From contig DATDRP010000003.1 of NCBI GenBank assembly GCA_035291665.1, positions 20,549 to 84,548 of the forward strand: 64,000 nt of DNA, in the 5' to 3' direction. Both the position numbers and the translations under genes were made by a program. Source of the stretch: Patescibacteria group bacterium. Its GTDB lineage: Bacteria; Patescibacteriota; Microgenomatia; UBA8517. Below, piece after piece: positions 10,861-60,065 of this stretch (its first letter is position 1; each line of letters starts with the position of its first letter). Below the pieces are notes generated by a model, which saw only the letters and a program-made list of their open reading frames with translations, did no database searches and had not been told where the DNA came from.

Positions 10861-11017
10861 TGATAAAACTCCACCCCGCTTACTCTTAATGCATTTATAG
10901 TTTACTCAATTAATATCAATTTAATCGTGTTATAGCCGTTTAATACATGGATATAAGACATCTGTTATTTGCCATTTCATCTACTTGGGTTTTTAAAAGA
11001 ATGTATAATCAGAAAAA

Positions 11018-16553: not shown

Positions 16554-16786
16554 GATTCATTTTAACAAACAACAAGCTACTAATTAACTGCTAATTTAAA
16601 ATCACTAATTAATACAAATTCCTATTCGTGATAATTCGCGTTTCCCATTAGTGAGTAATTCGTGATTATAATACAATTGCAATTCGTGAACCTAATATCT
16701 TAATATCGAATCACCTAGTATCTTTTTTGGTAATTCGTAGCCAACTCTTGCAATTTATATCTTTTTGGCCTATATAATGACTAAAT

Positions 16787-21379: not shown

Positions 21380-21583
21380 TTTGGAAATTGGAATTTGGTA
21401 ATTGGATATTTAGGTATTAGGTTGTAGGAAATGGGAAATGAGTAGTGACTAGTGGGAAGTGGGAAATGGAGATAAGCAAGTAGGTTGTAGGAAATTAGTA
21501 GCAATTCGTAGCTAATTGGAAGTATTTCGTGAACTTAATATCTTAATATCGAAGCACATAATATCTAACTGATTCGTGTTTAA
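21380..21583. repeat. Composite repeat island B (TAATTG/GGAAATTGG module, GT-rich module, AATTCGTA array, 33-nt 3' motif)
   Basis: 'ggaaattggaatttggtaattggatat' is shared with 14255-14285. 'ggttgtaggaaatgggaaatgagtagtgactagtgggaagtgggaaatgg'. 'cttaatatcttaatatcgaagcacataatatct' at 21534-21566. Confidence 0.7.
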
Positions 21584-40567: not shown

Positions 40568-40576
40568 ATATGAATC

Positions 40577-40987
40577 ATGAATTATGAATTAAGAAGTATG
40601 AAGAAAGAATTAAAGAAAATAAAAAATTTTACGGATTTGAATGTTTGGAAAGAAGCCCACAAACTTGTACTTACCGTGTATAAAATAACTAAGAAATTTC
40701 CTAAAGATGAACAATTCGGCTTGATAAACCAATTAAGACGTGCAGTTGTTTCAATAACATCTAATATTTCAGAAGGATTTAGCAGATATTCTTATAAAGA
40801 AAAGTCCCAATTTTACTTCATGGCACTTGGATCCCTAACGGAAGTTCAGAATCAATTAATAATAGCTAAAGACTTAAAGTACATTACCAGCAATGAATAT
40901 TATCAACTAGAAGAGTTGACTGTTGTTGTAAGTAAATTACTAAACGGTCTTATCAAAGTATCTAAAACTAAAATTCATGATTCGTGA
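40577..40987 (+). CDS. Four-helix-bundle protein (23S rRNA intervening-sequence protein / Avd-like family), second copy
   Basis: 136 aa. 'SITSNISEGFSRYSYKEKSQFYFMALGSLTEVQNQLIIAKDLKYIT' is the family signature. The palindromic motif GAATCATGAATT occurs at both flanks (40571-40582 and, reverse-complemented, 40971-40982). Confidence 0.7.
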   Translation: MNYELRSMKKELKKIKNFTDLNVWKEAHKLVLTVYKITKKFPKDEQFGLINQLRRAVVSITSNISEGFSRYSYKEKSQFYFMALGSLTEVQNQLIIAKDLKYITSNEYYQLEELTVVVSKLLNGLIKVSKTKIHDS

Positions 40988-41040
40988 TTTATTGATGTTT
41001 AATACCATGATTCATAATTCTTGATTCGTGATTCAAATAT

Positions 41041-43479: not shown

Positions 43480-43618
43480 ATATAAAAAATAAGTCAGCTC
43501 GAATTGGTAATGGGGATTACAAAAATAATCTCCAATAGGGTCTTGATTTTATACCGGCATATAGTTCATATTAAATATATGCATTTTGTAGACTGAGGCT
43601 ACTCGGAGTAAATGCCGA

Positions 43619-43999
43619 TTGTTCATGAAAATTAAAATTGTCAGATATCCATATTATGATCATAAGGTTGGCGAGATCGTAAATTTCGGTGAAGAAAAGA
43701 ACCGGTCACTTGTTTCATTCCAAAAAGCAGTTTGGGTTGATGATAAAGGCAATCCCCCTGTCGAGAAAGGCAGGAAGAAATTAGTAAACCAAGCAAAAAC
43801 ATTGTTATCGAAATCGTCCAATAAACCAAAAAAATTTCTTTCAAATAAACTATCCGAAAAGGTTCAGCAAAAGAAAAAAGAAATTCAAATTGAAGATGTT
43901 CAGAAACCTGTTGAATTAAAAACACAAAATTCTGAAGGGGCGAATTCTGAAGACGATAAGGCAGTTGAAAAGAAAAGTTTTTGGGATCGCTTGAAATAG
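43619..43999 (+). CDS. Lys-rich hypothetical protein
   Basis: 126-aa ORF, 'KKLVNQAKTLLSKSSNKPKKFLSNKLSEKVQQKKKE'. Ends 1 nt before the next ORF (43999 / 44001). Confidence 0.35.
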   Translation: MFMKIKIVRYPYYDHKVGEIVNFGEEKNRSLVSFQKAVWVDDKGNPPVEKGRKKLVNQAKTLLSKSSNKPKKFLSNKLSEKVQQKKKEIQIEDVQKPVELKTQNSEGANSEDDKAVEKKSFWDRLK

Positions 44000-44000
44000 A

Positions 44001-44204
44001 ATGAAAATTTTTAATCTGCATTCTAACGCGAAAAAAGAAGTAAAAAATTTAAAAAAAGTTTCTCATGAAGAATATGATCAATTGGGTAAACTAAAATCAA
44101 ATCAATACGTAGAATTTACGGTAATCGGCAAAAACAGGTCATGGATTGATTTCATGCCTTTGAAGGTTTTCAAGAAATTAAATCCTAATGTAATATTAAA
44201 ATAA
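44001..44204 (+). CDS. Small hypothetical protein
   Basis: 67-aa ORF tightly packed between 43619..43999 and 44215..47055. Co-orientation and spacing suggest co-transcription. Confidence 0.3.
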   Translation: MKIFNLHSNAKKEVKNLKKVSHEEYDQLGKLKSNQYVEFTVIGKNRSWIDFMPLKVFKKLNPNVILK

Positions 44205-44214
44205 CTAATTAAAC

Positions 44215-47055
44215 ATGGCTATCCAAAACGACTTTACGATTTATCCGGCAACAAAAACAATACGTCATACTTCAGGTACTGCCGTATACGACACGGTCGA
44301 TTTTTATACCTGGTTAATGGACACCTTTGACGAACCGGGATATCTAACATACGAAACACCGATCAGGTATAACACACCTACATCATTCACTATGATTAAC
44401 GGTTGGTTTTTGGATAATGGTGACGGCGATGGTGTTACAGTTGCATTGGGAAATATTCTTCAATATCTGACCGGCGGAGGTATTGATACGTCAGGGTATT
44501 CAACAGTAAATGATCCGATTTTAATGGTAGATATGGACGGAACAACGGACTTTGTATACTCCGATCTTGATAACACTGTTGTTGCAAATACCACAGAGGA
44601 TGTCGGACCTCTGCTTGCTTTTAAAAACGACTACCCGGCAGCAGGTAGGGCAAGAATTTGGGTGAGGGATACAAACACACATGGTGCAATTTCAGATAAT
44701 GACACCATTGCAGTTACCGGTGGGACAGGTGCTGGTGATGCTCTTGGTGCGTCAGCCAGCGGAGACGAAATCTATCACAACCTCTTTACAATTGCTTCAT
44801 TCCCGACTGATGTTAATCCCCAAGTTTATGTTTATCAACGTCACCCTGTAACGGCAGGAAGCTATAACGTTAGGGTTCGTATTGCCGAGTGGTCGGCTTT
44901 CACCAACTGGGATCGGGGTTCCATTGATGTACTTATTCCTGTACAGCTTGGTGGGGCTGCGATTGATGGTGGAAATATTTCAACATTTGTACGTCAAACC
45001 GGAGACACCTTTACTTATGTTACTTCTACTCTTACCTCTTCCGGTAGAACACCGATCGCTACGGAAACTTCAGCCGATGAGGTAAACATCACTAAAGGTG
45101 AGCACTATCTCCTCTATGACACTTCCAACACAGGTTCCTTCTCTGTTGACGATGTCATATCAAACCGTGACCTATCTGCAGGAATTCCGCCGGATTGGTA
45201 CGCCGAAGTTGTTGCCGTAGACGAATTTGCAAGCACGACCGAGGGTATGCTAACACTTCGGGGGTTAAGAGGGGTAATTGCAAATAATGATGCAATTTTT
45301 GTCAGTAATGTCCAGGAAGCTTTGGTAAACGGTAAAGTTGGTGATACCTATTTCACCTACACCGGAGGTACGGATCCAACAACACTTGATCAAGTCATGA
45401 CAGGAAGTTCATCAGGAGCCAAAAGGATTCTCCGGGGTGTTGACGCAACAGAAAATTATTTAGTCCTTCAAGATGATCCAACCATAACCGGCTCAAACCG
45501 TAATGCATACTACAAAGACTTTACAACCGGCGATACTGTTACAGGAGCGACCAATGGATCAGTTACCCCGGACGCTACTTCGGTAACCTTAATTTCCGGC
45601 TATAACGATATAACAGTTGCACATGTCAACGGAACTATAGTGGTCAACGGTTTTTCCGGAACATTCCTGCGCGGTGAAAGAGTCACCTGGACAGGTGGTG
45701 GACCGGCAATTGTGATTTATACAGATGGCTCCAGTACGATGACATTGGGAAATGTCGAGGACGAAACAGCCCTTACCACAAGCGGTTTAACAATTACAGG
45801 ACAACGATCCACTGCAACTTGCACTACTAATGGAACCGGAGGTATGACAGATAGCAATACCCAACAGTTCAACTTTACTCTCCAATCATTCGCCGCAAAC
45901 TATTCTGTCTTTATTCAAGGGGGTTCAATTTATAACGCCAGTAGTGAAGGAAGATCTCTTACCGATATCTATGCCTATTTGCAGTATTACCTTCGAGACG
46001 GTCAGGATATATCAAGCAGGGTGATTTACACTTCAGATGCTTCGAGTATATTAGAAGTCGCCGCAGAGGAATACGTCAAAGCTGACGTCGACTACTCTGC
46101 TACCAAGCAGGCTCCTTTCGGAACATTGGCTGGAGGAGTTTTCTTTGGAGCACAAGCAGTCTGGGTTGAAGGTATGAGTTCAACTGATAATAACAATATC
46201 AAGTTCACTGATGCGGGCGGAACTCTAAGACAACCTTTCACCTCCATCACCCTATCAATAACAAATACAAGAGAATTCGATAGAATCGCTGTTTATCCTA
46301 AGCATTTAACATTATCGCTTCCGAATAAAACTCAGTATACAAGTCACGCGACAACTAATGCTTTGAGTGACACAACATTCGACGCTCCCGATACGGTCAC
46401 TTTCCCCAACGACACTCCGACGTCCGGAACTTTTATTGTTGTTGATAATTCAGCCAGTGAGGAACACAGATACAGATATTCCGCTTTTGACAATCTCGGC
46501 GGTACAGGAACTAATGATGGAGAATTATTCCTTCCTTCCGATGCGTCACAGGGGGGTGCTGTTGCGGGTACAGCAACAGGTGGGTCAGATGGTCAAACTC
46601 TCTTTGATTCAGCAGCAAGTTTTGGCGGCACTGAGGATGTCGTGGTTGGAGACATAATAAGAAGAACCAATAACGAAGGCGGATGGGCATATGTTGTGAC
46701 TGTTAATTCAACAACGCAATTGACTACTACACTATTCAACGCAGGAATTACTGCCGGATGGGATGAAACAGCAACAGCCGACGCTTATGAAATTAATGAA
46801 TTAGTAGTTGCTTATACTGGTTCCGATACGTTTTTCATCCCCTATCTGGATACAATTGAAGATGTCGGAGATGACGGCTCACCCGGTTCTGTAACTCAGT
46901 CTCTTACTTATGTTTCTGACCGAAACGTTGTGGTTGAAGTAAGAAACGTCCAAAATACAACCCAAATCCAGCCGTTTAAAACTACAGGTACTATTGGATC
47001 AAACGGTTTAACCCAGTCTGTCATCCGAAATGAAGATACAGTCTACGGAACATAA
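44215..47055 (+). CDS. Large (946 aa) S/T/G-rich hypothetical protein, paralog of 41041..43479
   Basis: See paralog evidence above. N-terminus 'MAIQNDFTIYPATKTIRHTSGTAVYDTVDFYTWLMDTFDE' is similar in pattern to the 41041 gene N-terminus. No signal peptide. Confidence 0.45.
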   Translation: MAIQNDFTIYPATKTIRHTSGTAVYDTVDFYTWLMDTFDEPGYLTYETPIRYNTPTSFTMINGWFLDNGDGDGVTVALGNILQYLTGGGIDTSGYSTVNDPILMVDMDGTTDFVYSDLDNTVVANTTEDVGPLLAFKNDYPAAGRARIWVRDTNTHGAISDNDTIAVTGGTGAGDALGASASGDEIYHNLFTIASFPTDVNPQVYVYQRHPVTAGSYNVRVRIAEWSAFTNWDRGSIDVLIPVQLGGAAIDGGNISTFVRQTGDTFTYVTSTLTSSGRTPIATETSADEVNITKGEHYLLYDTSNTGSFSVDDVISNRDLSAGIPPDWYAEVVAVDEFASTTEGMLTLRGLRGVIANNDAIFVSNVQEALVNGKVGDTYFTYTGGTDPTTLDQVMTGSSSGAKRILRGVDATENYLVLQDDPTITGSNRNAYYKDFTTGDTVTGATNGSVTPDATSVTLISGYNDITVAHVNGTIVVNGFSGTFLRGERVTWTGGGPAIVIYTDGSSTMTLGNVEDETALTTSGLTITGQRSTATCTTNGTGGMTDSNTQQFNFTLQSFAANYSVFIQGGSIYNASSEGRSLTDIYAYLQYYLRDGQDISSRVIYTSDASSILEVAAEEYVKADVDYSATKQAPFGTLAGGVFFGAQAVWVEGMSSTDNNNIKFTDAGGTLRQPFTSITLSITNTREFDRIAVYPKHLTLSLPNKTQYTSHATTNALSDTTFDAPDTVTFPNDTPTSGTFIVVDNSASEEHRYRYSAFDNLGGTGTNDGELFLPSDASQGGAVAGTATGGSDGQTLFDSAASFGGTEDVVVGDIIRRTNNEGGWAYVVTVNSTTQLTTTLFNAGITAGWDETATADAYEINELVVAYTGSDTFFIPYLDTIEDVGDDGSPGSVTQSLTYVSDRNVVVEVRNVQNTTQIQPFKTTGTIGSNGLTQSVIRNEDTVYGT

Positions 47056-47077
47056 ACTTATTTAATAATTGGGAGTT

Positions 47078-47584
47078 TTAATTCTTACTTCTTAACTCAT
47101 CTTTTTCCAGTTTTGCTCTTATTGTAAGCATTTCAAGCCCTTTTGCGGTTTCCCCTAAGACATAAAGAAGCTGTCCGTAATTGTAATATGCGGCTTTATA
47201 TCTGGGATAAATGTTAATTGCCCGCCGGTAGCACCTTTTTGCATACTCATGATTACCCATTGATGTATAAACATTTCCCAAATTGTTATAAATTACGGCA
47301 CTATAAGGCTTTATACTCAGCGCTTTTTCAAAAATATCCTCTGCTTCTTTCAGAAATCCTACATTTTTAAGCGCGACTCCCAAATTACAGAATGCCCGGA
47401 AGAAATTTGGATCGAGCCGGATCGCATCTTTGTAGCTATTTATTGCAGAGGGTAAATTGCCGTTTTTTAACAAGGAATTCCCCATCTGGTAATAAATTTT
47501 GGCTTGCTTGCGTTTCATAATTAGATGAAAACCAAGTGCTCTTAACCCTCGGTTGTTTATTATATATAATCTATTATATGGCAC
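47078..47584 (-). CDS. TPR-repeat protein
   Basis: 168 aa. 'YYQMGNSLLKNGNLPSAINSYKDAIRLDPNFFRAFCNLGVALKNVGFLKEAEDIFEKALSIKPYSAVIYNNLGNVYTSMGNHEYAKRCYRRAINIYPRYKAAYYNYGQL' gives 3-4 TPR units. The true start may be the internal Met at 47518. Confidence 0.55.
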   Translation of the reverse strand: MPYNRLYIINNRGLRALGFHLIMKRKQAKIYYQMGNSLLKNGNLPSAINSYKDAIRLDPNFFRAFCNLGVALKNVGFLKEAEDIFEKALSIKPYSAVIYNNLGNVYTSMGNHEYAKRCYRRAINIYPRYKAAYYNYGQLLYVLGETAKGLEMLTIRAKLEKDELRSKN

Positions 47585-48921
47585 TTAGAGTGTATTGGTA
47601 TGAGAACCCGAGAATAATTGAGATTCCGCTTCCGGCAACAGAAATTACTATTCAGGACTTGACTGATCAGATTAAAGATCTTGAAGACGAACCTGCAAAT
47701 CTTGCCTTCCCGATTTTGGTAAAAACCTTCGGTAAGCAGCCGTTGGGAGCAGGTGTTTATGTAGGTATCACAGCTGAACTGCAAAATGCCAAAGTGTCTT
47801 TTGCAGCCAGAGATGGAACCGATATCCCACCGGAGGTGCTTTGTACAATCTCCGGTGGAAATTTGGTTGCTGTCGATGAAAATGGCGTTCCTATGAACCC
47901 AATACACCCGACTGCGTATACTCAAGTTGTTCTTGCCCAGTCCTCCTCGGCAACAATTGCCACACCGCCGTCGGACTACAGTTTGCTGTATCTTGTGGAG
48001 TCACTGCGGGGAAACCACGCATCGGTTGGGAACATTTGGTACTGGGACCCGGTTAGCGGGTCTGATACCAATGACGGGACCACGCCATCAAACGCAGTGC
48101 AAACCTTCGCTAAGGTTCAATCACTTTCTGATTTGGCAAACGGGGTTAATGATATCGTTTTCGCGCTCGTTACCGACCCATCCGGTATTACAACGGTTAC
48201 AAATGAAAATATTAATATCACCTCTTCTACACCAGGCATGAAACTCCGGGGGCCGGGGTATGCCTTTCAATTCAAACCGGCAACGGCGGGTAGCGATGTG
48301 ATTACAATATCTGCCGACAATGTTGAAGTCAGCGGCTTTTATATCCAGCCAAAATCTCCGGGATCCGATAACGGTATCACGGTAACCGGTGATAGTGCTC
48401 TTATTAAAGATATCTGGGTTGATACGGCAACCGCCAATGGAATTGATATCAGCACTTCCTCAAGAACCAAAATTGAAAAGTGCGTCATCGAAAACTGCAC
48501 CGGAAACGGAGTTAATCTTGGCGCGTCAACGATCAAATCCAATATCACAACCTGTATCATCTCCGGTTGTGTCAACGGGGTTGATCTAGGAGGGTCGGGG
48601 TTAACCGACAATATCCTGGAAAATAATGTTATTTATAATAATTCCGGTTATGGGATTGATATCGGTGCCGGAGTTTTGCGGACGGGTGTTCGGATGCATC
48701 ACACGTTTTCTAATAACACTTCGGGCAGTTATTACGACGAACCGCCCACTGCAGCAAAATACACTTTTGTCGAAGAAGGTGTTGCAACCGGAGATATAAA
48801 CGCTATTGTAGATGCAGTTTGGGATGAGGTTATCTCACCTTCCGCCCATACCGGTGCCCAATCAGCGGGTAAAACTCTTCGCGATGCAAAAACAAAAGCC
48901 ACTCTGGCATCACTTAAGTAA
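47578..48921 (+). CDS. Right-handed beta-helix (pectin-lyase fold, tailspike-like) protein
   Basis: Repeats 'GNGVNLGASTIKSNITTCIISGCVNGVDLGGSGLTDNILENNVIYNNSGYGIDIGAG' are typical parallel beta-helix rungs. No signal peptide. The start is placed at the ATG at 47578, because the track's GTG at 47536 overlaps the divergent TPR gene. Confidence 0.45.
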   Translation: MALRVYWYENPRIIEIPLPATEITIQDLTDQIKDLEDEPANLAFPILVKTFGKQPLGAGVYVGITAELQNAKVSFAARDGTDIPPEVLCTISGGNLVAVDENGVPMNPIHPTAYTQVVLAQSSSATIATPPSDYSLLYLVESLRGNHASVGNIWYWDPVSGSDTNDGTTPSNAVQTFAKVQSLSDLANGVNDIVFALVTDPSGITTVTNENINITSSTPGMKLRGPGYAFQFKPATAGSDVITISADNVEVSGFYIQPKSPGSDNGITVTGDSALIKDIWVDTATANGIDISTSSRTKIEKCVIENCTGNGVNLGASTIKSNITTCIISGCVNGVDLGGSGLTDNILENNVIYNNSGYGIDIGAGVLRTGVRMHHTFSNNTSGSYYDEPPTAAKYTFVEEGVATGDINAIVDAVWDEVISPSAHTGAQSAGKTLRDAKTKATLASLK

Positions 48922-48934
48922 TTTTGTAAATTAG

Positions 48935-49235
48935 AGATAAGAAAAAAAATGGGATGTGGGAAGTGGGTTCTAAGTAATAGGTTGTAAGCAGTAAGTTGTA
49001 GGAGGTAGGTTGTAGGAGATAGGTTATAGGAAAAGAGAAATGAGTTGTGGGAAGAGAAACTGGGAATGAGATGTGAGTTGTGAGTAGTGGGAAATACAGA
49101 TAAGAAATTAGGAATATAGGAATTAAGAAATTTAGAATAAAGAGAATAGAGAAATAGGAAAAATAATTGCGGAAGGGAGATTGATAATTGTAAAATAAAT
49201 CCTATATTAATGGTGTTGTGAAGACTAACGAAGTA
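48935..49235. repeat. Composite repeat island C (modules X and Y)
   Basis: Module X 'gggatgtgggaagtgggttctaagtaataggttgtaagcagtaagttgtagg' and module Y 'gtgggaaatacagataagaaattaggaatataggaattaagaaatttagaataaagagaatagag'. Only ~5 C in ~240 nt on the + strand. Confidence 0.75.
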
Positions 49236-49427
49236 TTACTCAGCTTTTGGATCGGTCGGCTCTTCTTTGACTGCTTTTTCGAATTCACTTTTAGCCTGTT
49301 TTATGCCTTTTGTGGTTTCACCGGCTTTCTTGCCAAGACCTCTGAAAATTGCTCCACCGAAGAATAAAAGTACTACTAAAACGATAATGATAATTTCGGT
49401 CGTTCCGATATTTTGAAGAAATCCCAT
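49236..49427 (-). CDS. tatA: Twin-arginine translocase subunit TatA/E family
   Basis: 63 aa. 'MGFLQNIGTTEIIIIVLVVLLFFGGAIFRGLGKKAGETTKGIKQAKSEF' gives N-terminal TM + FG hinge + amphipathic helix. Flanked on both sides by GT-rich repeat islands. Confidence 0.7.
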   Translation of the reverse strand: MGFLQNIGTTEIIIIVLVVLLFFGGAIFRGLGKKAGETTKGIKQAKSEFEKAVKEEPTDPKAE

Positions 49428-49439
49428 ATTAAAAAATAT

Positions 49440-49900
49440 ATTAATACTAAGATTCCCGAATGTCCAGTAGCAGTTTTACCCCATATTAGTAAAGGGTGAC
49501 AGAAAATTAGATTTAAGTTTAAGTTGTATGTTGTAGGTGATAGGAAGTGAGTAATGAGAAGTGAGATGTGAGAAATAAGAGTTAAGAGGTAGGTTGTAGG
49601 TGGTGGGATGTGGGATGTGAGTGGTGGGAAATACAAATAAGAATTTAGGAATACAGGAATTAAGAGAAAAGAAATGGGATGTTGGAAGTGGGTTTTAAGT
49701 AATAGGTTGTAAGTAGTAAGTTGTGGGAAAAAGGTTGTAGGTTATAGGTTATAGGAGCGAAGTTAGAAATATAGAAATTTAGTATTTTGTTTTAAGTTTT
49801 CAATTGAAGAACATTGGCCATTTAGCATTCGTATCTCGTCTCACGTATCACGTATTACATCGCTTGGTTTGAAAAGTACCGAACTAACAAGATCTCATTG
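49440..49900. repeat. Composite repeat island D (modules Y then X, then 'CGTATCTCGTCTCACGTATCACGTATTAC' module)
   Basis: Y: 'gtgggaaatacaaataagaatttaggaatacaggaattaagag'. X: 'gggatgttggaagtgggttttaagtaataggttgtaagtagtaagttgtggg'. These are the same modules as island C in swapped order. The tail module is shared with island F. Confidence 0.75.
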
Positions 49901-49934
49901 ACAGTTTCGATTACATCAAATTAATATTACCTGT

Positions 49935-50606
49935 ATGCCTTCAGCTTTATACAATAGAAAATACGTACAGAATGGCTACTATTATATTTATCACAAGTCC
50001 TCGGGAGGAAAAGAATTATTCCGCGATGAAGATGACTATTTGAATTTTGTTAAAACTTTTCAATATTATTTGACATCACCCACCGGTAAACCTCTAAGTC
50101 AAACAAAAAAAGAGGATTTAACCCAAACACCTTCACATATCCAGCTCTCTTTCAGGATACTACTGTTTGTCCTTCTACCCAAAAGTATACACATATTAAT
50201 CCGACAAAATACTCCCCCTCAGACCAACAATAATATAACTAATCTGATGCGAAGACTTTCTATCACTTATTCGATGTACTATAAAAACAGATACGATACT
50301 CATGAAAGCTTATTTGATGGGAAGTATAAAAATATTAATATCCCCGACAACGAAAAACTTCTTTATTTGTCCAAACATATTCACAGAATGCCCCTTGACC
50401 TTTATCCGCAGGAAACACTTGAGAAATACATTTACTCCAGTTATCCCTTTTATATTGGTGTGGCCGGCAAACCCGATTGGTTAGATACAAAAATAATATC
50501 CGATATACTCTTACGGTCAAGTCCGGGTTTGGGATACAAAAATTTTGTTGAAAATTCACACCTTGGCAAAGACTTGGATAAGAAATATATCGTGAATGGG
50601 GGTTAA
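49935..50606 (+). CDS. IS200/IS605-like Y1 (HuH) transposase / RAYT-like protein with degenerate HuH motif
   Basis: 'NGYYYIYHKSSGGKELFRDEDDYLNFVKTFQYYL' corresponds to the N-terminal block (YHVxxRGNxRxxIFxDDxDxxxFL). 'KSIHILI' sits at the HuH position, where the first His is replaced. 'ITNLMRRLSITYSMYYKNRY...SLFDGKYK' corresponds to the LxxLxxxYT...WQxRY(K) block with the candidate catalytic Tyr. Confidence 0.5.
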   Translation: MPSALYNRKYVQNGYYYIYHKSSGGKELFRDEDDYLNFVKTFQYYLTSPTGKPLSQTKKEDLTQTPSHIQLSFRILLFVLLPKSIHILIRQNTPPQTNNNITNLMRRLSITYSMYYKNRYDTHESLFDGKYKNINIPDNEKLLYLSKHIHRMPLDLYPQETLEKYIYSSYPFYIGVAGKPDWLDTKIISDILLRSSPGLGYKNFVENSHLGKDLDKKYIVNGG

Positions 50607-50692
50607 CAACCAATAATTAAATCTATATATCTGTTTTTTGGGACTCTTGATCAAACTATAAGAAGAAAGTATGATTAGGAAACAATAAATTT

Positions 50693-50938
50693 ATGTTTTC
50701 CAACATCGGCGTCACTGAAGTTATTATCATCATCTTGGTTCTGACTGTGATTCTCGGCAGTAAGAAAATGGGAGAACTTGCCAGCAATGCCGGACGGGCT
50801 GGCGCTGAGCTAAAAAAAGTCAAAAAGGAATATGAAGCTGCTATGAAAGAATTGGACAAGGAAATCAACGTTGATGATGAAAAAAAAGAAAAATCAGAAA
50901 AGAAAGATTCTTCAGAAAAAAAAGGAGGTGAGCTTTAA
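50693..50938 (+). CDS. Tat translocase subunit, TatB-like (TatA/B family with extended charged tail)
   Basis: 'MFSNIGVTEVIIIILVLTVILGSKKMGELASNAGRAGAELKK' has the TatB-like 'LG' hinge instead of FG. The long K/E-rich C-terminal tail is TatB-like. It overlaps the next tatA by 1 nt (TAATG). Confidence 0.55.
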   Translation: MFSNIGVTEVIIIILVLTVILGSKKMGELASNAGRAGAELKKVKKEYEAAMKELDKEINVDDEKKEKSEKKDSSEKKGGEL

Positions 50939-51078
50939 TGGCTAATTTTGGAGTACCGGAACTTCTCATTATTTCATTAATACTTGTGTTCATGTTCGGA
51001 AGCAGAAAAATTCCGGAATTCATTAAAGGTATGGGTCAGGGAATCAAAGAATACCGAAAAGCTGTAAGCCGTAAGTAA
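50938..51078 (+). CDS. tatA: TatA family protein (46 aa; absent from ORF track because <60 aa)
   Basis: ATG at 50938 overlaps the upstream stop (TAATG). Translation is MANFGVPELLIISLILVFMFGSRKIPEFIKGMGQGIKEYRKAVSRK, with stop TAA at 51076-51078. Canonical TatA TM-FG-amphipathic helix. Confidence 0.7.
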   Translation: MANFGVPELLIISLILVFMFGSRKIPEFIKGMGQGIKEYRKAVSRK

Positions 51079-51100
51079 ACCTTGGATTTCAACGTAAATT

Positions 51101-51835
51101 ATGCCCAAAACGCAGGAGCTTCAACTTGAAGAGTCCATAAATAAATATTATCCGTTTCTGATGGAAATCAGGAAAAGACTTTTATTCCTGGCAACAATCT
51201 TTGTGGTTTCCGCAGTCGGGGGATTTTTTTATTACGAACGGATTGTCAGAATAATTGTTGATTTTTTGTCGCTTGACGGCATCAACATTGTTTTCACCTC
51301 GCCTTTCCAGTACTTAAATCTTGCCGTTGATGTTGCCTTCCTGGTCGCAGTAATTGTTATCTTTCCGGTAATCATCTATCAGATAATAACTTTCCTACGT
51401 CCCGCTCTCAAAAAAAGTGAGTACAATTTAATGATCTCCTTAATCCCCATTGGTTTTTTCCTATTTATATTCGGCTTCATCTACGGAGTTGTCATGATGC
51501 GCTATGTTATGCAACTATTTTTCGAAAAATCAGTCGAGCTTAATATCGGCAACATGCTGGATATAAGCTCGCTACTTTCCAAAATAGTATCAACTTCAAC
51601 TTTTATGGGTTTAGCTTTTGAATTTCCAATCGTTGTCACGGCTTTGGTAAAACTTAAAGTTATAAAACTTAAAGTCGTTTCCCAACAAAGAGTTTACGCC
51701 TGGTTTGCATCCCTGATCTTCGCGGCAATGCTGCCGCCTACGGATCTGCTTTCTTTGGCACTTCTGACTATGCCTCTTGTAATCCTATTCGAATTTACGC
51801 TATTATTTAACAGATTATTTTCTTTGAGAAAATAA
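51101..51835 (+). CDS. tatC: Twin-arginine translocase subunit TatC
   Basis: 244 aa, six TM helices. 'GLAFEFPIVVTALVKLKVI' and 'AAMLPPTDLLSL' match conserved TatC segments (FE-PV, P-TD). Confidence 0.8.
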   Translation: MPKTQELQLEESINKYYPFLMEIRKRLLFLATIFVVSAVGGFFYYERIVRIIVDFLSLDGINIVFTSPFQYLNLAVDVAFLVAVIVIFPVIIYQIITFLRPALKKSEYNLMISLIPIGFFLFIFGFIYGVVMMRYVMQLFFEKSVELNIGNMLDISSLLSKIVSTSTFMGLAFEFPIVVTALVKLKVIKLKVVSQQRVYAWFASLIFAAMLPPTDLLSLALLTMPLVILFEFTLLFNRLFSLRK

Positions 51836-51912
51836 TCATATTATAAGTCCGGTTAGATTTGGGCACTTGCCAAGCCCGATCGCACCTAACCATAGAGAGG
51901 GAGTGATAGTAA

Positions 51913-52059
51913 ATGTTAAGAGGTATTGGAACTACAGAACTATTAATCATTGCTGTTGTACTTTTGGTGTTGTTCGGAGGTAAGAAGTTGCCTGAACTTG
52001 GAAAAGGAATCGGAGACGCTATCCGAGAGTTCAGAAATTCAATGAAGAATAAGGAATAA
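51913..52059 (+). CDS. tatA: TatA family protein (48 aa; <60 aa, not in ORF track)
   Basis: SD GGGAG lies 9 nt upstream of ATG 51913. Translation is MLRGIGTTELLIIAVVLLVLFGGKKLPELGKGIGDAIREFRNSMKNKE, with stop at 52057-52059. Confidence 0.7.
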   Translation: MLRGIGTTELLIIAVVLLVLFGGKKLPELGKGIGDAIREFRNSMKNKE

Positions 52060-52110: not shown

Positions 52111-52509
52111 ATGGGATTGATATCGCCGTTATTTTCGCTTATTGCACCGTTTATTATTTGGCCGGTTGAGTATCTGTTGCCTTTTCCTTATTTAGTCGAA
52201 GAAGTCTACAAGTCAATACTCGTACTTCTCGTGGTTAATGACAATCTTTCAAAGAAGGATCAAGCACTTCTTGTTGTTGTTAACGGAGTATTATTTTCAA
52301 TTTCGGAAACATTCTTCTATTTTATTAATATCTATAAAGTCGGTTCTCTGACAACAGTTTTGGAGCGACTTATTTCTACCACCCCGTTACACATTGTTAC
52401 GATTTTAATTATTTTCTATTTTGCAAAGAAAAATAAGAAATTGTTGCCAATTGGTTTTTTTGTTTCGGTAATCCTTCATTATTTATTTAATTTGATGATT
52501 GGAAAATAA
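52111..52509 (+). CDS. Small polytopic membrane protein, possibly CPBP/CAAX-type intramembrane protease-like
   Basis: 132 aa with 4 TM helices. 'VEEVYKS' (EExxxK), 'ILHYLFN' (HxxxN). Short for the family, so a weak call. Confidence 0.25.
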   Translation: MGLISPLFSLIAPFIIWPVEYLLPFPYLVEEVYKSILVLLVVNDNLSKKDQALLVVVNGVLFSISETFFYFINIYKVGSLTTVLERLISTTPLHIVTILIIFYFAKKNKKLLPIGFFVSVILHYLFNLMIGK

Positions 52510-52564
52510 ACGGGTAAGATAGTTGCGCATATAATTAATATTGTCCTGTATAATCGCTACAAAA

Positions 52565-52730
52565 TATAATCTCTGATGTGAGAGTTGAGAGATGAGATGT
52601 GGGAAGTGAGAAGTGAGTTGTAAGCAGTAGGTTGTAGGTAATAGGTTGTGGGAGGTAGGAAATTGGTATATTCCTAATATCTTAATATCGAAGCACATAA
52701 TATCTCTCCTATTCGTGATCAGTTCGTGAT
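52565..52730. repeat. Composite repeat island E (GT-rich module + 33-nt 3' motif + TTCGTGAT pair)
   Basis: 'gatgtgagagttgagagatgagatgtgggaagtgagaagtgagttgtaagcagtaggttgtaggtaataggttgtgggaggtagg', then 'cctaatatcttaatatcgaagcacataatatct' (52673-52705), then 'attcgtgatcagttcgtgattc'. Confidence 0.75.
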
Positions 52731-53304: not shown

Positions 53305-53631
53305 AAGCACTATGGCCAGGCGCTAGGTATAAGGTAGTGAGAAGTGAGAAATGAGATGTGGAAATTGAGATGTGGGAAGTAAGTGGTGGGAAGTGGAAAA
53401 TAGGTTGTAGGAGGTAGGATATCAGGAATATAGGAATTAAAGGAATAAGTAGTTTCGTTCTTCTTTTTTCGTCTCTCGTATCCCGTATAACTTGTCACTT
53501 GTTACGTATTACTTTTCCCCTACCGCTTGATATCTTTCCTATTCGAGTTCAATTCGTAGCTATAATTCGTGATAATTAGTGATGTAAATTTGTGAGCTAA
53601 ATTCGTGAGTTCAATTCGTCTTAACTCGTAG
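53305..53631. repeat. Composite repeat island F (GT-rich module, 'TCGTCTCTCGTATCCCGTATAAC...ACGTATTAC' module, AATTCGTGA array)
   Basis: 'ggtagtgagaagtgagaaatgagatgtggaaattgagatgtgggaagtaagtggtgggaagtggaaaataggttgtaggaggtagg', then 'cgtctctcgtatcccgtataacttgtcacttgttacgtattac', then 'caattcgtagctataattcgtgataattagtgatgtaaatttgtgagctaaattcgtgagttcaattcgt'. Confidence 0.75.
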
Positions 53632-56478
53632 CTAATTAGTAGACATACTCGTGTAGCTCTTTGAGACCCATCCCAATAGGTCTTTATCATATTCTATTTG
53701 GTACCAGTCATCTTTCTCGGAGATTACGCTATACGAATCACCGGGATTTACTTTCGCCACCTCAACACCATCCGGTTGACTTCTGACTCGAAGCCAGCCT
53801 GTCGGCGTTTCAGTTATCTTAATTTCAATAGGTTCTGCGTCAGCTACTTTTTCTTCTGATTCTTCTGAAGCGTTGGATGTGACAATATACTTATTTTCTA
53901 TCCAACCGGATTTTTCAGAACCGTCCGCTAATGCTATTTCAACCCAATCTCCGTCCTCGCTGACTTTCACAACCTGTTCATCGTTTTTTACATCAAATAA
54001 TATCTCGCCATCTGTATCCGGAAGGTTCCGCACCTGAATATCAGCCTCGGAATCAGACTTCAATCTTACAAATTCAACTCCCCCGACCGATTCTTCCTGG
54101 TTGGCTGTCTGTGCAACTTCTTCCTTGGTTTTGGTAACTTCCTGATCGCTCACTGCCGGCGTGTTGGACGCTGCCGGTACGTAACGAAGAATCAATGCCG
54201 TTGTGAATGATGAAGTAACCGCAACTATCATCAAAGGCAGTGCCGTTCGCAATAAACCCTTAAATCCACCCCTTTTCTTTTCAGGCTGGGTTGCTTTTTT
54301 CTTATTTTCAGGCTCTACCTCCTGAACATGATCCTGAGAAAGCTTTTTCTTTTTTCTGCCGGAAATCATTCTCATGTAAAGCGCCAGGAAGACAAAACCT
54401 GTCGCCATGATGATGATGAGTCCCCAAACTGCAATAGCCTGAGCACCTCCGACAAATCCAAATAGCGTACCGGTCGAACCAGCTTGCGTCACCAGCTCTT
54501 TTAGTTTATCCATCTTCTCAGTTACAGCTTGAAGCTCAATCACAGCTTCACGATAATTTCTGATCTTCTGTTCAGGTGTTTGAGCTGTAGCCTGAAGGTT
54601 ATTGATTTTATCCAAGGATACATTAATGTCGCTTGTCAGAGTTACACCCTGGGCAAAAAAAGCCGTTCCTTCCAGTGGTTTGGAAAGCTCTTCCGCTTGT
54701 TTACGAAGACTGTCGATTTCATTGTCAGATATCACCCAAATGTCTTCCACTCTGACGGCAAAGACTTTGGTTTCGGCTGGTTCAAGTTCGAACTCACCTT
54801 CAATATAGTATTGATCTTTCTCTGTATCGTACTGGACTTTTAATCCTTCATCCACCTCTATGATATCTTCTTCTCTGACTTCAGGAGGAAGATAATATTT
54901 TATTGGTACGCTTTGAGAAACAAGAGTTGAGGGATTCGTGATCATTGATTTAAAAACCATGCTCCCTTCTTCAAGCCAAAAGTTGGAAAATGACGTTCTT
55001 CCACCCTTGGCCAAAAGCATTTTGTTTGATGAGATGAGTGCTTTAAGAGTAAGTAGCGAATTTTTAATCTTGGCAACAGCAGTACTTCCGAAAGACTTCG
55101 ACTCTGTTACAGCGCTGGCTTTTGGAATTCTATTTATAGCAAGTATGCTTTTTTTGAGATCCTCTACATTCTCGGGTTTAACCTGGTTTTTAGAATCGCC
55201 TATCGATGATAAATATTGGTCCACCTGGTTATTTTTTGTATCTAATACCAAAACTGTTTCTTCGACGTCTTTGATTTTTCCGAAAACTGTCGGCTTACTT
55301 GAGCTGTCGCTTGAATCTCCGATCATTTTTTCCAATATCGAAAGATAGTTTGTGAGACCGGCAAGCTCGCGTTTTGTATTTGGTGTTTTTCCGCTTGTTG
55401 ATAATGAATTCTTCGCATAAGCCACAACTTTTTTAATCGCTTTCACCTGGTCATTTACATCGGGTAGAACATCCCAGTTCCAGGAATCGGAAAGCCAATT
55501 CACCTGACCAAAAAACGAATTGACCGATCCGGAATCGCTTTCATCCCCAATCACCGAATCCAGCTCGGTTAAATTGTTCATAAGCTCCTCCTCGCTTAAC
55601 GTATTCCATTTTGAGCTTATGTTGGACGATTTACTCTGAATATATTGATTGTTAATATAAACCTGAGTCGCAATACTCTTTGATTGCGTCAGTTTTTCAG
55701 TTAGATCCTGGTTATCCTCTTCGATAAAACTTTCAATAATTGGTTTATTGACCAGCTTTTCCAAGAGGAGTCTGTTTTCTTTAATCGTTTTTTTAACATC
55801 ATTTAAATCTGCTGACACATTGGTGATATTCGTTGCGTTATCGATATCGGTCTTTGTTGCAAGATTTCCGCTTGTCAGGGTTGTACCGGTAAGTGTTCTT
55901 GTGGATGAATCCCAGATGTTGGTAACCAGAGATCCGAAACCCGTCAGAGTCCTGCCTGAATAATTCCAAATGTCATACGCTAGGTTTCCAAAACCCGAAA
56001 GTGTTTTGTTGGAATAATTCCAAACTGCTGAAGCGATTGAACTGGTTGTCAGACTGCTTGCTGTATCGCTGACTTCAAAGCTCTTATCTATACATAAATT
56101 CTCTGTTCCATTGGTACAACAAACCCGTGATCTATAAAATCCCGTTGCAGTTGGTGCTGTAAAATCTTTATGGTACCAACCATCAGTCTCCATAGTCATC
56201 AAAGCTCCGTTATGAATAAGGTTGTTGCTTTGATCGCGTGTGGTGATTGTGCAGGTGTAACCGGCAACAATTGGTGTATAGGAGTCATCAAACAGAAATT
56301 CACCGACAGTGCAATCAGTATCAGGAGTACAAACATTTGAGCTGCCCGACGCAGCCTTAACAAGATCAGCTCTCATCAAGGCTGCGCTAAATAACAAAGC
56401 TAAAATAGCTTTAAAGCCAAAACCTTTAGCGGTTCTTGTATAGCTTTGAGATTTAATTGTTAATTTTTGGGCAGTCAT
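53632..56478 (-). CDS. Large (948 aa) envelope protein: signal peptide, extracytoplasmic N-domain, coiled-coil, two TM helices, tandem C-terminal SH3b domains
   Basis: N-terminal signal (ILALLFSAALMRADLVKAAS). TM 'LFGFVGGAQAIAVWGLIIIMATGFVFLALY', then a K-rich loop, then TM 'LLRTALPLMIVAVTSSF'. C-terminal 'GWIENKYI' and 'GWLRVRSQPDGVEVAKVNPGDSYSVISEKDDWYQIEY...GWVSKSY' are SH3_3-like. Confidence 0.5.
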   Translation of the reverse strand: MTAQKLTIKSQSYTRTAKGFGFKAILALLFSAALMRADLVKAASGSSNVCTPDTDCTVGEFLFDDSYTPIVAGYTCTITTRDQSNNLIHNGALMTMETDGWYHKDFTAPTATGFYRSRVCCTNGTENLCIDKSFEVSDTASSLTTSSIASAVWNYSNKTLSGFGNLAYDIWNYSGRTLTGFGSLVTNIWDSSTRTLTGTTLTSGNLATKTDIDNATNITNVSADLNDVKKTIKENRLLLEKLVNKPIIESFIEEDNQDLTEKLTQSKSIATQVYINNQYIQSKSSNISSKWNTLSEEELMNNLTELDSVIGDESDSGSVNSFFGQVNWLSDSWNWDVLPDVNDQVKAIKKVVAYAKNSLSTSGKTPNTKRELAGLTNYLSILEKMIGDSSDSSSKPTVFGKIKDVEETVLVLDTKNNQVDQYLSSIGDSKNQVKPENVEDLKKSILAINRIPKASAVTESKSFGSTAVAKIKNSLLTLKALISSNKMLLAKGGRTSFSNFWLEEGSMVFKSMITNPSTLVSQSVPIKYYLPPEVREEDIIEVDEGLKVQYDTEKDQYYIEGEFELEPAETKVFAVRVEDIWVISDNEIDSLRKQAEELSKPLEGTAFFAQGVTLTSDINVSLDKINNLQATAQTPEQKIRNYREAVIELQAVTEKMDKLKELVTQAGSTGTLFGFVGGAQAIAVWGLIIIMATGFVFLALYMRMISGRKKKKLSQDHVQEVEPENKKKATQPEKKRGGFKGLLRTALPLMIVAVTSSFTTALILRYVPAASNTPAVSDQEVTKTKEEVAQTANQEESVGGVEFVRLKSDSEADIQVRNLPDTDGEILFDVKNDEQVVKVSEDGDWVEIALADGSEKSGWIENKYIVTSNASEESEEKVADAEPIEIKITETPTGWLRVRSQPDGVEVAKVNPGDSYSVISEKDDWYQIEYDKDLLGWVSKSYTSMSTN

Positions 56479-56510: not shown

Positions 56511-56651
56511 CTACTCGCGGGTAGCCTTTCTGACTTCCCGGATAGATTCGCCGATACCTTTTGCAAGTTCCGGCAGCTTTCTTCCGCCGAATAAAAACAA
56601 CATTATTACACCGATAACTAATAATTCGGTGCTTCCGAAGTTTTGTAACAT
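56511..56651 (-). CDS. tatA: TatA family protein (46 aa; <60 aa, not in ORF track)
   Basis: Minus-strand ATG at 56651. Translation is MLQNFGSTELLVIGVIMLFLFGGRKLPELAKGIGESIREVRKATRE, with stop (CTA on +) at 56511-56513. The listed +-strand ORF 56467..56733 is its antisense artefact. Confidence 0.65.
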   Translation of the reverse strand: MLQNFGSTELLVIGVIMLFLFGGRKLPELAKGIGESIREVRKATRE

Positions 56652-56876: not shown

Positions 56877-57833
56877 ATGTTAAGGCTTGATTACCATTTA
56901 TCCCCCACACTCCAACATAACCTACAAAATATTGAAGCGGTGCGGGTAAAAATTCTGACAACCGCACTTTCTCCCAAGCATGAACTCAGATTTAAATGGG
57001 AAACAAAATTATTAAAGATATATTCATCACTATGCCTGTCCGGAAGCGACATATCGAAGAAACAAATAATCGGGATTTTATCTTCAGGTGAAAAGAAAAA
57101 GGCCAACCGGGAGGAATCCGAAATAATCCGCTACAGAAACTGCCTTGACCACATCAGGAATGATTGGATGGCTAGTGGTAAAAACATTGGTACTAATGAT
57201 GTAAAAAATCTTTATGATGTAGCCTTGGTGCCTGTAGGAAGCTTTAATCCATCTTTATTTAATACCAAAGAAAAAGATCTGAAAAAAATTCTTGATTACG
57301 TTCAATCATCAAAAGAGAATCCTATCATTCAAGCCGGAATTGTTCAAATTCAGATTCACACACTGCAGCCTTTCAAAGAAGGGAACGGAATCGTTTCAAG
57401 ATTACTGACTGATCTTATCCTTTATAAAAACGGCTATGACGTCCGTGAGCTTATTGCACCTGAAATCGAGATGTATAACAGGCAAAAATCGCACGACATC
57501 GCAATTGATCTTTGCATAAAGGAAGATTCAATGTCTAAATGGCTTGATTATTTTGTTTATATCACGCTTCTCCAGCTCAAAAATGTCGCAACTGATATAA
57601 CTGAATCAAAATTTCTCACAGATTCAAAAAATTCTAATTTCAATCTTAATTCCAGGCAGAAAAAGATCCTTTTATTCCTTGAGGCTCCGAATAGTAAACT
57701 TGCAAATAAAGATGTTCAGAAAATGTTTAGTGTTTCCCAAATTACGGCGTCAAGAGATCTTTCTCATCTTGCCGGTTTGGGTCTATTGATTGGATACGGT
57801 AAAGCCAGGTCAAAAGTCTATATGAAGTCATGA
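56877..57833 (+). CDS. Fic/Fido-family protein with degenerate active-site motif and C-terminal winged-helix
   Basis: 'IHTLQPFKEGNGIVSRLL' aligns to HPFx(D/E)GNGRxxR with His->Gln and first Arg->Ile. The C-terminal 'SRQKKILLFL...VQKMFSVSQITASRDLSHLAGLGLLIGYGKARSKVY' is the wHTH typical of Fic proteins. Confidence 0.55.
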   Translation: MLRLDYHLSPTLQHNLQNIEAVRVKILTTALSPKHELRFKWETKLLKIYSSLCLSGSDISKKQIIGILSSGEKKKANREESEIIRYRNCLDHIRNDWMASGKNIGTNDVKNLYDVALVPVGSFNPSLFNTKEKDLKKILDYVQSSKENPIIQAGIVQIQIHTLQPFKEGNGIVSRLLTDLILYKNGYDVRELIAPEIEMYNRQKSHDIAIDLCIKEDSMSKWLDYFVYITLLQLKNVATDITESKFLTDSKNSNFNLNSRQKKILLFLEAPNSKLANKDVQKMFSVSQITASRDLSHLAGLGLLIGYGKARSKVYMKS

Positions 57834-59889: not shown

Positions 59890-60065
59890 AAAGGGATATT
59901 ACGTGCTTCGATATTAAGATATTAGGACTATTTCAATTTTTAATTTCCCTCTTTCCACCACTCACATCTCACTTCCCATTACTCATTTCCAATTTCTTTT
60001 CTCTTTTCTCTTTATTCTAAATTACTTAATTCTTAAATTCCTGTATTCCTAAATTCTTATTTCTA
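59890..60065. repeat. Composite repeat island G (reverse orientation: 33-nt motif complement, then CT-rich complement of modules X/Y)
   Basis: 'gatattacgtgcttcgatattaagatattagg' (59895-59926) is the reverse complement of the 33-nt motif. '...ctctttattctaaattacttaattcttaaattcctgtattcctaaattcttatttc' is the reverse complement of module Y. Confidence 0.7.

Follow-up and report, generated by a model that had tools for sequence, protein, structure and literature searches.

The 64,000-nt stretch of DNA analysed here, taken from a Patescibacteria group bacterium (contig DATDRP010000003.1, positions 20,549 to 84,548), is referred to below as the window. It holds a locus for twin-arginine translocation (Tat) in which a single tatC gene lies amid five genes of the TatA family. 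We read it as the Tat export locus of a Microgenomates-type bacterium of the candidate phyla radiation (CPR), with a layout inherited from a distant ancestor, and we give this reading a probability of roughly 0.85. The locus is real and largely ordinary, its genes are recognisable by standard models, and its paralogy is ancient: the comparison with related loci shows one tatC accompanied by four anciently diverged TatA-family orthogroups. A first-pass annotation of the window had implied that the set of copies is an expansion specific to this genome, whereas relatives have matching paralog types in matching places. The synteny comparison, which had been set beforehand as the check that could overturn that proposal, essentially did so, as the window copies fit the class model of their position or type.

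The tat genes of the window

The tat genes are listed below in the order of their coordinates. The TatA-family copies are called A1 to A5, and each is given with its type (U2, U1, D1 or Dfar) as defined by the comparison with related loci.

49236-49427, minus strand: copy A1, 63 aa, PF02416 29.7 bits, U2-type
50693-50938, plus strand: copy A2, 81 aa, PF02416 25.0 bits, U2-type, TatB-like
50938-51078, plus strand: copy A3, 46 aa, PF02416 39.0 bits, U1-type, immediately 5' of tatC
51101-51835, plus strand: tatC, 244 aa, PF00902 137.6 bits over profile positions 2-208 of 208
51913-52059, plus strand: copy A4, 48 aa, PF02416 62.6 bits, D1-type, between tatC and the prsW-like gene
56511-56651, minus strand: copy A5, 46 aa, PF02416 50.6 bits, Dfar-type, leading the pair of tatA and giant-protein genes

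All five copies exceed the gathering threshold of Pfam PF02416 (TatA_B_E, mttA/Hcf106; 21 bits) and thereby belong to the TatA/TatB/TatE superfamily. The six tat open reading frames (ORFs) are present at these coordinates in the mechanical ORF list, so that the positions given by the first-pass annotation for five TatA-family ORFs and tatC proved exact. Three of the TatA ORFs are indeed shorter than 60 aa, and the span of the locus was measured as 7.4 kb. An unfiltered six-frame scan with a hidden Markov model (HMM), covering every stop-to-stop segment, found no sixth TatA copy or remnant in the window, the surroundings of A1 included.

The copies share an architecture that can be read from their sequences: a G-x-x-E motif and a hydrophobic helix, then an [FL]G[GS] hinge that leads into a basic, amphipathic segment. 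The hinge of A2 is of G-S type (ILGSKK), with no proline after the two lysines, and its long tail is rich in acidic residues and lysine; the "LG" hinge and long acidic tail for which the copy at 50693 had been called TatB-like are thus present. In A1 the two lysines after the hinge are gone (FGGAIF). The stop codon of A2 and the start codon of A3 overlap by one base (TAATG), with GGAGGTG ahead. A5 is preceded by AAGGGGGTGA, which resembles a Shine-Dalgarno sequence, and by a promoter-like site (TTGACA-18-CATACT) that is the best such match in the region.

The stricter family models are passed by one copy. For NCBIfam TIGR01411 (tatAE, cut-off 53.9) A4 scores 64.1 and is the only copy above, followed by A5 (49.8), A3 (46.5), A1 (30.0) and A2 (28.9). 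Membership in TatB fails for TIGR01410 (cut-off 56.5), with 33.3 for A2 and 22.5 for A1; the tatB score of A2 lies slightly above its tatAE score, both being under the respective cut-off. The best solved-structure match of A4 is the chloroplast TatA 7b7o, and the TatAd structure 2l16 is matched as well.

TatC, of which the window has one gene, matches the structures of the E. coli (9dzz, E=1.6e-15) and Aquifex (4b4a, E=6.7e-12) proteins, and scores 112.4 with NCBIfam TIGR00945, under the strict cut-off of 132.7. It aligns over its full length to E. coli TatC, with E22 and E107 opposite E15 and E103, which we take to be the residues that bind the twin-arginine (RR) motif. Both glutamates are unchanged across 24 relatives. 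An identical protein is recorded by NCBI as TatC of Patescibacteria, and the next relatives are 55-60% identical.

A gene order shared with deeply diverged relatives

For comparison with the window we assembled 87 related tatC loci, of which about 82 are distinct. An alignment of 24 TatC proteins, used to scan genomes, supplied 80 of them, spanning Woese-, Ames-, Roizman-, Gottesman-, Levy- and Daviesbacteria, WWE3 and other Patescibacteria, and exact-protein look-ups supplied seven more. The alignment query was required, as a single TatC sequence searched against species-representative genome contigs recovered no relative. TatA-family genes were collected at every locus by an iterated TatA HMM run on all six-frame ORFs of at least 30 aa. 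This gave 268 members in 88 sources (the 87 loci and the window), arranged in a recurring order: U2, U1, tatC, D1, a prsW-like gene, sometimes a GNAT gene, a giant SH3 gene on the opposite strand, Dfar, and a gene with Fic and helix-turn-helix (HTH) domains. With one Woesebacteria genome the synteny reaches well past the tat genes: it runs from a TPR/GT41 gene, takes in the beta-helix gene and the tat cluster, and continues as far as Fic, MerR, LysM-M23 and Rho.

The four classes differ in position and in sequence. U2 proteins are TatB-like (55-100 aa), with an acidic-rich tail of about 22 residues and no proline past the hinge. U1 proteins (45-55 aa, consensus KKIPEF) are encoded directly before tatC, and D1 proteins (47-53 aa, consensus KKLPELGKG) at most 500 nt after it. 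Dfar proteins (46-52 aa, consensus KKLPELARG) are encoded 6-33 nt upstream of the giant gene and, like it, on the opposite strand; they are nearly tail-less, their tail being the shortest of the four classes. The polar position of the transmembrane (TM) helix is glutamate in all four.

Class HMMs were built from position-defined sets with the window left out, and with the duplicate or truncated loci L002, L004, L006, L007 and L013 excluded from the class statistics. In 5-fold cross-validation by locus 200 of 204 sequences were placed in their own position class, and the position classes are therefore sequence-distinct orthogroups older than the split of the lineages. On these models A2 scores 80.2 bits as U2 (next best at most 38.7), A3 75.4 bits as U1 (next best 64.3), A4 96.1 bits as D1 (next best 88.3) and A5 85.2 bits as Dfar (next best 77.1), while A1 reaches 70.9 bits as U2 (next best at most 37.4). 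The window is thus composed of one U1, one D1, one Dfar and two U2-type genes. With A2 to A5 scoring best on the class of their own position and A1 on U2, the sequences point to an ancient syntenic paralogy.

Orthologues of U2 occur in essentially every related locus, and U2, U1 and tatC stand together in nearly all. U1, D1 and Dfar orthologues hold fixed positions in 34-64 loci, and the tatC genes of the related genomes that carry the matching paralog types are 40-57% identical to that of the window. The TatA-family number per genome is usually one to three; five lies above it, and above the one or two that the first-pass annotation had given for most small genomes. Among the 60 loci with enough flanking sequence one has a single copy, 20 have two, 17 three, 17 four, two five, two six and one eight, which makes five a high number yet below the maximum of eight.

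The five window copies are divergent paralogs, as had been said of them, with 33-59% protein identity among each other, so that none of them is a recent duplicate; the best match at the DNA level is 75% over 111 nt (A4 against A5).

Some of the short ORFs, A1 above all and perhaps A5 or A3, could be decaying or non-functional, leaving an ordinary TatA(B)C set to do the work. A1 is the most diverged copy, has lost the two lysines, shows no clear Shine-Dalgarno sequence, is inverted and lies beside a degenerate mobile-element gene; A1, A2, A3 and A5 are under the NCBIfam family cut-offs, and two copies suffice in some relatives. We nevertheless hold decay to be quite unlikely. All five ORFs are intact and above the Pfam threshold, A5 has a good Shine-Dalgarno sequence and the promoter-like site, and A1 still reaches its 70.9 bits on the U2 model. 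The retention of U1, D1 and Dfar orthologues at 34-64 deeply diverged loci argues for purifying selection. That the short ORFs are real genes, as first annotated, is borne out by the Pfam scores of all five copies and of tatC, by the tatAE score of A4, and by the solved structures that A4 and tatC match.

Repeat islands and a degenerate transposase-like gene

The spacers around the tat genes contain four repeat islands and a further ORF:

48926-49160, unstranded: repeat island 1, arrays of purine-rich heptamers with AGGAATTA-type units after them
49524-49785, unstranded: repeat island 2, heptamers of the same type as in island 1
49935-50606, plus strand: Y1-like ORF, a degenerate homologue of IS200-like (Y1) transposases between A1 and A2
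52562-52707, unstranded: repeat island 3, heptamers and a 33-nt motif found at three further intergenic sites
53336-53452, unstranded: repeat island 4, heptamers

The repeat unit is a tandem heptamer of the form T-R-R-G-N-N-D, most often TAGGTTG, TGAGATG or TGGGAAG, which then gives way to the AGGAATTA-type units. The window has 12 arrays of at least four units, compared to none in 50 shuffled versions. The islands match no Rfam family.

The first-pass annotation had described the tat genes as interleaved with these islands and with a transposase-like gene, and had suggested that the copies arose by recurrent, possibly repeat-mediated duplication. The five copies would then have been produced in this lineage, by way of the repeats or of the transposase. 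Several features would fit such an origin: half of the heptamer arrays (6/12, at 48.97-53.39 kb) fall within 4.5 kb of tat genes, A1 is bracketed by islands with two blocks in common (96 nt, 88.5%; 62 nt, 88.7%), an IS200-like homologue lies between A1 and A2, and the upstream copy number varies among relatives. The islands are real and they do flank A1 and lie between the prsW-like and GNAT genes and between the GNAT and giant genes, but none occurs between A2, A3, tatC and A4. The blocks shared by islands 1 and 2 are permuted in order and in direct rather than inverted orientation, and the inversion of A1 is therefore not explained by them. Throughout the window the same and other short tandem repeats fill the majority of the longer spacers between genes, which indicates that the repeats are a trait of the intergenic DNA of this genome and not of its tat genes. 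Moreover, just 3 of the 87 related loci have any heptamer array, and the relatives with six to eight TatA copies have none, which argues that the duplications were not driven by the repeats. For each copy there are orthologues in the matching position even where tatC is no more than 40-57% identical, and the window copies show no long DNA similarity. We consider a duplication by repeats or transposase in this lineage to be very improbable, and of the original proposal repeat mediation has to be given up.

The transposase-like gene can be kept in part. The ORF at 49935-50606 itself has no Pfam, PDB or PHROG match, and PF01797 does not match it even at E-values up to 1. Its homologues lie at non-syntenic places in 16 loci, and all 11 that were aligned match PF01797 (Y1_Tnp), which together argues that the ORF is homologous to Y1 transposases yet degenerate. 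The HUH motif LMPNHFHLL reads LLPKSIHIL in the window, with HFH replaced by SIH and the first histidine thereby lost, and the motif RYIHLNP of the catalytic tyrosine reads SKHIHRMP, with histidine in place of the tyrosine. As judged by these motifs the ORF is a degenerate IS200-type gene and probably inactive, and it stands outside the conserved tat layout. An active IS200 transposase or REP-associated tyrosine transposase (RAYT; REP, repetitive extragenic palindromic) that mobilises the repeats was considered and ruled out, given the lost catalytic motifs and the absence of arrays from the loci with intact homologues. Under the preferred reading of an inherited layout, the heptamer islands and the IS200-like gene are later, lineage-specific additions to the spacers and not the makers of the copies.

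The surroundings resemble IS200/IS605 and REP-associated systems in that the homologues match PF01797 with the HUH motif and the tyrosine, and in that the gene lies amid short intergenic repeats. They differ in the missing first histidine, the missing tyrosine and the missing PF01797 match of the window ORF, and in that the repeats are tandem heptamers and not palindromic REPs. The loci with intact Y1 homologues, unlike the window, have no heptamer arrays.

Three further observations concern the repeats. A motif of about 33 nt, CCTAATATCTTAATATCGAAGCACATAATATCT, occurs in four intergenic spacers (52675-52707, 21536-21566, 16691-16723 and, as reverse complement, 59892-59939); one pair is 100% identical over 31 nt, the motif has no Rfam match, and its placement relative to the flanking genes is inconsistent. 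Heptamer arrays of AACCTAC and ACTTACA, the complement of the units of the tat region, lie at 857-910 and 1380-1410 inside the ORF at 594-5537 (1647 aa), so that either the true start of this ORF is further downstream or heptamer repeats are translated. Arrays matching TAGGTTGTAGGNNNTAGGTTG were found in at least 120 metagenome contigs (L088-L207), many from groundwater 0.1-um fractions and with a G+C content of 0.31-0.70; arrays of the (TAGGTTG)n type are hence not unique to the genome of the window, and this set is too heterogeneous to interpret.

The fifth copy and the history of the upstream pair

In relatives two to six copies lie upstream of tatC, and this variation argues that duplication and loss of the upstream pair recurred within the clade. 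The recurrent duplication of the first-pass annotation thus holds for the number of upstream U2-U1 pairs; a recent, genome-specific or repeat-mediated origin does not. Where relatives have additional copies, these are further U2-U1 pairs ahead of tatC, namely two pairs in L005/L013 (Woesebacteria) and in L009 and L012 (Amesbacteria), and three in L008. The outer U2 copies of L005, L008, L009 and L012 score 145-172 against each other, compared to 136-146 against the inner U2 of the same genome, with a tie between outer and inner scores in L012 alone. As the outer copies are closer to each other, the duplication of the pair is also older than these genomes.

A1 occupies the site of these outer pairs, between the beta-helix gene and the inner pair, and differs from them in being inverted and in having no U1 partner. 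By its sequence A1 is a second, fast-evolving gene of U2 type. Most likely it is the leftover of an outer U2-U1 pair of the kind kept in relatives of Woesebacteria and Amesbacteria type, which would later have been inverted and would have lost its U1. In the unfiltered six-frame HMM scan no trace of a decayed outer U1 partner was found near A1.

Neighbouring genes and their linkage to the paralogs

Four conserved genes border the tat genes:

47578-48921, plus strand: beta-helix (NosD-like) protein, Beta_helix 40.9 bits and NosD 32 bits, directly upstream of the tat genes
52111-52509, plus strand: short PrsW-like membrane protein, 132 aa, PF13367 26.4 bits, the conserved partner of D1
53632-56478, minus strand: giant membrane protein, 948 aa, SH3_3 61.8 bits, 32 nt downstream of A5 on the same strand
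56877-57833, plus strand: Fic-domain/HTH protein, Fic 30.3 bits, divergent from A5 and in the same relative position in 31 loci

The mechanical ORF of the beta-helix gene, which has orthologues in 43 loci, begins at 47536; alignments with the orthologues begin at query residue 15, a methionine at 47578. The giant protein begins with a signal peptide of Sec type and has a large N-terminal domain, followed by a TM-loop-TM segment and, at the C-terminus, SH3_3 domains. Orthologues of its gene were found in 47 loci, and the proteins of relatives measure about 750-1100 aa.

Linkage was counted in the 68 loci with at least 6.5 kb of downstream sequence. Dfar and the giant gene occur together in 32 of them and are both missing in 30, while six have the giant gene only and none has Dfar only. 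D1 and the PrsW-like gene occur together in 29 loci and are both missing in 27; the PrsW-like gene is alone in five and D1 in seven. This linkage is the basis of another explanation, in which D1 and Dfar are TatA-derived membrane partners of the PrsW-like protein and of the giant SH3 protein, which might for example help to assemble or anchor these or remodel the membrane locally, and not parts of the translocase. It would account for Dfar never occurring without the giant gene and lying 6-33 nt upstream of it, for the prsW-like gene usually being next after D1, for the Sec-type signal of the giant protein with no conserved RR, and for the Dfar tail being the shortest of the four classes. Against it stands that D1 and Dfar are the most canonical TatA proteins of the set, with the top scores on Pfam and tatAE, an FGGKKLPE hinge and a conserved glutamate in the TM helix, that the gene neighbourhood is the sole pointer to a role outside Tat, and that the giant gene occurs without Dfar in six loci. 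We judge this explanation to be unlikely, though less so than decay.

Two groups of neighbours were considered as Tat cargo and set aside. An RR motif is not conserved in the giant proteins, neither at the N-terminus nor before the last TM helix, and their N-termini are Sec-like, which disfavours the giant SH3 protein as cargo; sporadic RR pairs occur in L039 (N-terminal) and in L008 and L056 (ahead of the last TM helix). The upstream 812-aa, 946-aa and beta-helix proteins, considered as cargo or as parts of a prophage, have no signal peptides, RR motifs or PHROG matches.

These upstream proteins belong to a run of large, signal-less proteins at 37679-48921 (962, 812 and 946 aa, followed by the 447-aa beta-helix/NosD-like protein), which is kept immediately upstream of tat in 27-43 related loci (e.g. 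L001 4149-9644). Apart from the beta-helix they have no Pfam or PHROG matches. The 812-aa and 946-aa proteins have a common N-terminal motif, ..LYS.LQD.FDE..QMDD..PM.AQTPTEYT... Between two of the giant genes lies a protein of 136 aa (40577-40987, plus strand) that matches "23S rRNA-intervening sequence protein" with 131.6 bits and bAvd-like with 34.2 bits; four-helix bundles of the bAvd-like type accompany diversity-generating retroelements. In the gap between tatC and D1 the locus L006 has a GIY-YIG ORF (87 aa, 10782-11045), and L005 and L007, Woesebacteria contigs that are otherwise nearly identical to it, have a gap of about 320 nt without a call. This ORF could be a small mobile endonuclease gene or a mere difference in gene calling.

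A candidate substrate with an internal twin-arginine signal

A protein encoded far from the tat genes bears on the question of what the pathway exports:

14339-15013, minus strand: candidate Tat substrate, two N-terminal TM helices, internal RR signal (DRRAFLKLIGSAG...KRAHA|A) and a C-terminal domain of about 100 aa

From residue 95 the protein reads LDRRAFLKLIGSAGLSVFMFSIFTKRAHA|A, with the RR motif at residue 97 and hence not N-terminal. The first-pass annotation had pointed to this internal RRxFLK motif, and RRAFLK is present and conserved across the family. In a rule-based scan this protein was the only strong RR-signal candidate of the window, as it combines a motif of the S/T-R-R-x-F-L-K type, an uncharged h-region and an AxA-type cleavage site. 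About 590 homologues were found, essentially full-length among the matches listed. Two alignments, one of 18 and one of 87 sequences, show that the N-terminal TM helices, the RR pair, F100 and K102 are conserved; in the larger one R98 is invariant and R97 is kept in at least 90%. The signature of the family is D-x-[DN]-RR-x-F-[LVI]-K-[LI]-IGS, preceded by two to four N-terminal TM helices. In a structure model three helices are joined by a disordered linker to a small C-terminal domain, which is rich in beta structure and has a predicted local distance difference test value of about 90. No Pfam model covers the family, the C-terminal domain has no PDB fold match, and a cofactor-binding motif was not found. 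Several of the homologues lie on the same contig as tatC.

As far as its sequence goes, this protein is a credible Tat substrate. The conserved E22 and E107 of TatC, taken together with a family that has an invariant internal RRxF[LVI]K signal, would be consistent with a working RR pathway.

Proposed roles of the components

In the mechanism that we propose for the inherited locus, U2 (TatB-like) and U1 (TatA-like) are probably translationally coupled and form, with TatC, the core three-component set. TatC and the U2 protein would make up the receptor for signal peptides, in keeping with the conserved RR-binding glutamates of TatC, while the short types U1, D1 and Dfar would provide the oligomerising translocation component. 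D1 and Dfar may in addition be tuned to, or co-expressed with, the genes that they adjoin, in analogy to the auxiliary TatE and TatAc. TatA pores specialised for particular substrates, as considered in the first-pass annotation, may exist too, with the conserved neighbourhood of the genes as the only evidence.

Several points weigh against this reading and have to be kept in mind. The TatB role of the U2 type is argued from position, tail and ubiquity, as the cut-off of TIGR01410 is missed and a Gly-Pro hinge is lacking, and we infer the roles of D1 and Dfar solely from their gene neighbourhood. The giant protein, with its Sec-type signal and no conserved RR, is no obvious Tat cargo. For A1, a clear Shine-Dalgarno sequence was not seen in the upstream sequence; its pairwise scores of 88-126 against all U2 copies are uninformative as to an outer or inner placement, and since the sequence is too diverged to be placed, its origin is argued from position only. 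The copy count and the substrate scan cover the 64 kb of the window.

Meaning of the layout and consequences for annotation

The genomes of CPR bacteria are very small, and exported enzymes that bear cofactors are seldom obvious in them. Four distinct TatA genes nevertheless hold fixed positions across much of the Microgenomates, with six to eight genes in some lineages. Somewhat speculatively, and as a possibility that we rate as doubtful, the Microgenomates may have an elaborated Tat machinery of four old TatA orthogroups around one TatC, in which D1 is tied to the PrsW-like membrane protease and Dfar to the giant SH3 protein, a membrane protein with a Sec signal that would bind the wall. 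If this were true, TatA paralogs would have specialised in ultra-small, single-membrane bacteria past the split into TatA, TatB and TatE, either as partner-specific translocases or as membrane helpers that assemble a large surface protein, and the clients of the pathway would be the membrane proteins of the conserved internal-RR family. The pairing of Dfar with the giant SH3 protein and the internal-RR family are testable entry points to Tat function in this group.

There is also a consequence for gene counts. Public gene calls miss TatA ORFs of 47-51 aa that score 78-86 bits with the TatA HMM (L001 10770-10922 and 13670-13813; L006 15172-15327). As gene callers miss several tatA genes of about 46-50 aa, counts of Tat subunits in CPR genomes are likely underestimates. 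A separate observation concerns taxonomic labels: GenBank records of metagenome-assembled genomes with a Microgenomates-type locus (L009, L011, L017, L019-L021 and about 35 others) are apparently mislabelled, as "uncultured Gammaproteobacteria", "Pseudomonadales", "Oligoflexia" or "Saccharibacteria".

Comparison with known Tat systems

A Tat system of TatA and TatC has been reported to occur in Microgenomatia, Paceibacteria and Saccharimonadia (PMC9166423). In a limited literature search this was the one relevant statement found for CPR, and a description of the four-class TatA layout was not found.

The protein at 14339-15013 can be compared to proteins with dual Sec/Tat membrane insertion, as known from the actinobacterial Rieske proteins of QcrA type. 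Its family resembles them in the N-terminal TM helices, the internal RRxFLK helix and a putatively exported C-terminal domain, and differs in that this domain has no cofactor motif or known fold and in that the topology and the Tat dependence are predicted.

With the TatA paralogs TatAd, TatAy and TatAc of B. subtilis, a single-membrane bacterium that also has TatCd and TatCy, the window has in common several short paralogs with an FG-x-KLPE hinge, the match of A4 to TatAd (2l16), and a paralog that is genomically tied to a particular neighbour; in B. subtilis tatAd-tatCd adjoins the substrate gene phoD. Unlike in B. subtilis, where each main TatA has its own TatC, one TatC serves all copies within the window, and the gene beside Dfar encodes a Sec-type and not an RR signal.

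The E. coli set of TatABC and TatE is matched in the single TatC with RR-binding glutamates, in the longer TatB-like and the shorter TatA-like protein encoded beside tatC, and in the extra short paralogs. The differences are the gene order (B-like, A-like, C compared to A, B, C), the number of paralogs (four or five compared to three), and the fixed place of two window paralogs beside non-Tat genes. The hinge of E. coli TatB is Gly-Pro, while that of U2 is G-S or G-G, and the tatB cut-off of TIGR01410 is missed. At the polar TM position all paralogs here have glutamate, in contrast to E. coli, where TatA has Q, TatB has E and TatE has K. TatE has been described as a distinct protein within the TatA family, with functional diversity among TatA-type proteins and Q, E or K at this position (PMC5777986). 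Taken as an analogy, the closest parallel to the locus would be TatABC supplemented by auxiliary TatA paralogs, such as TatE of E. coli and TatAc of B. subtilis.

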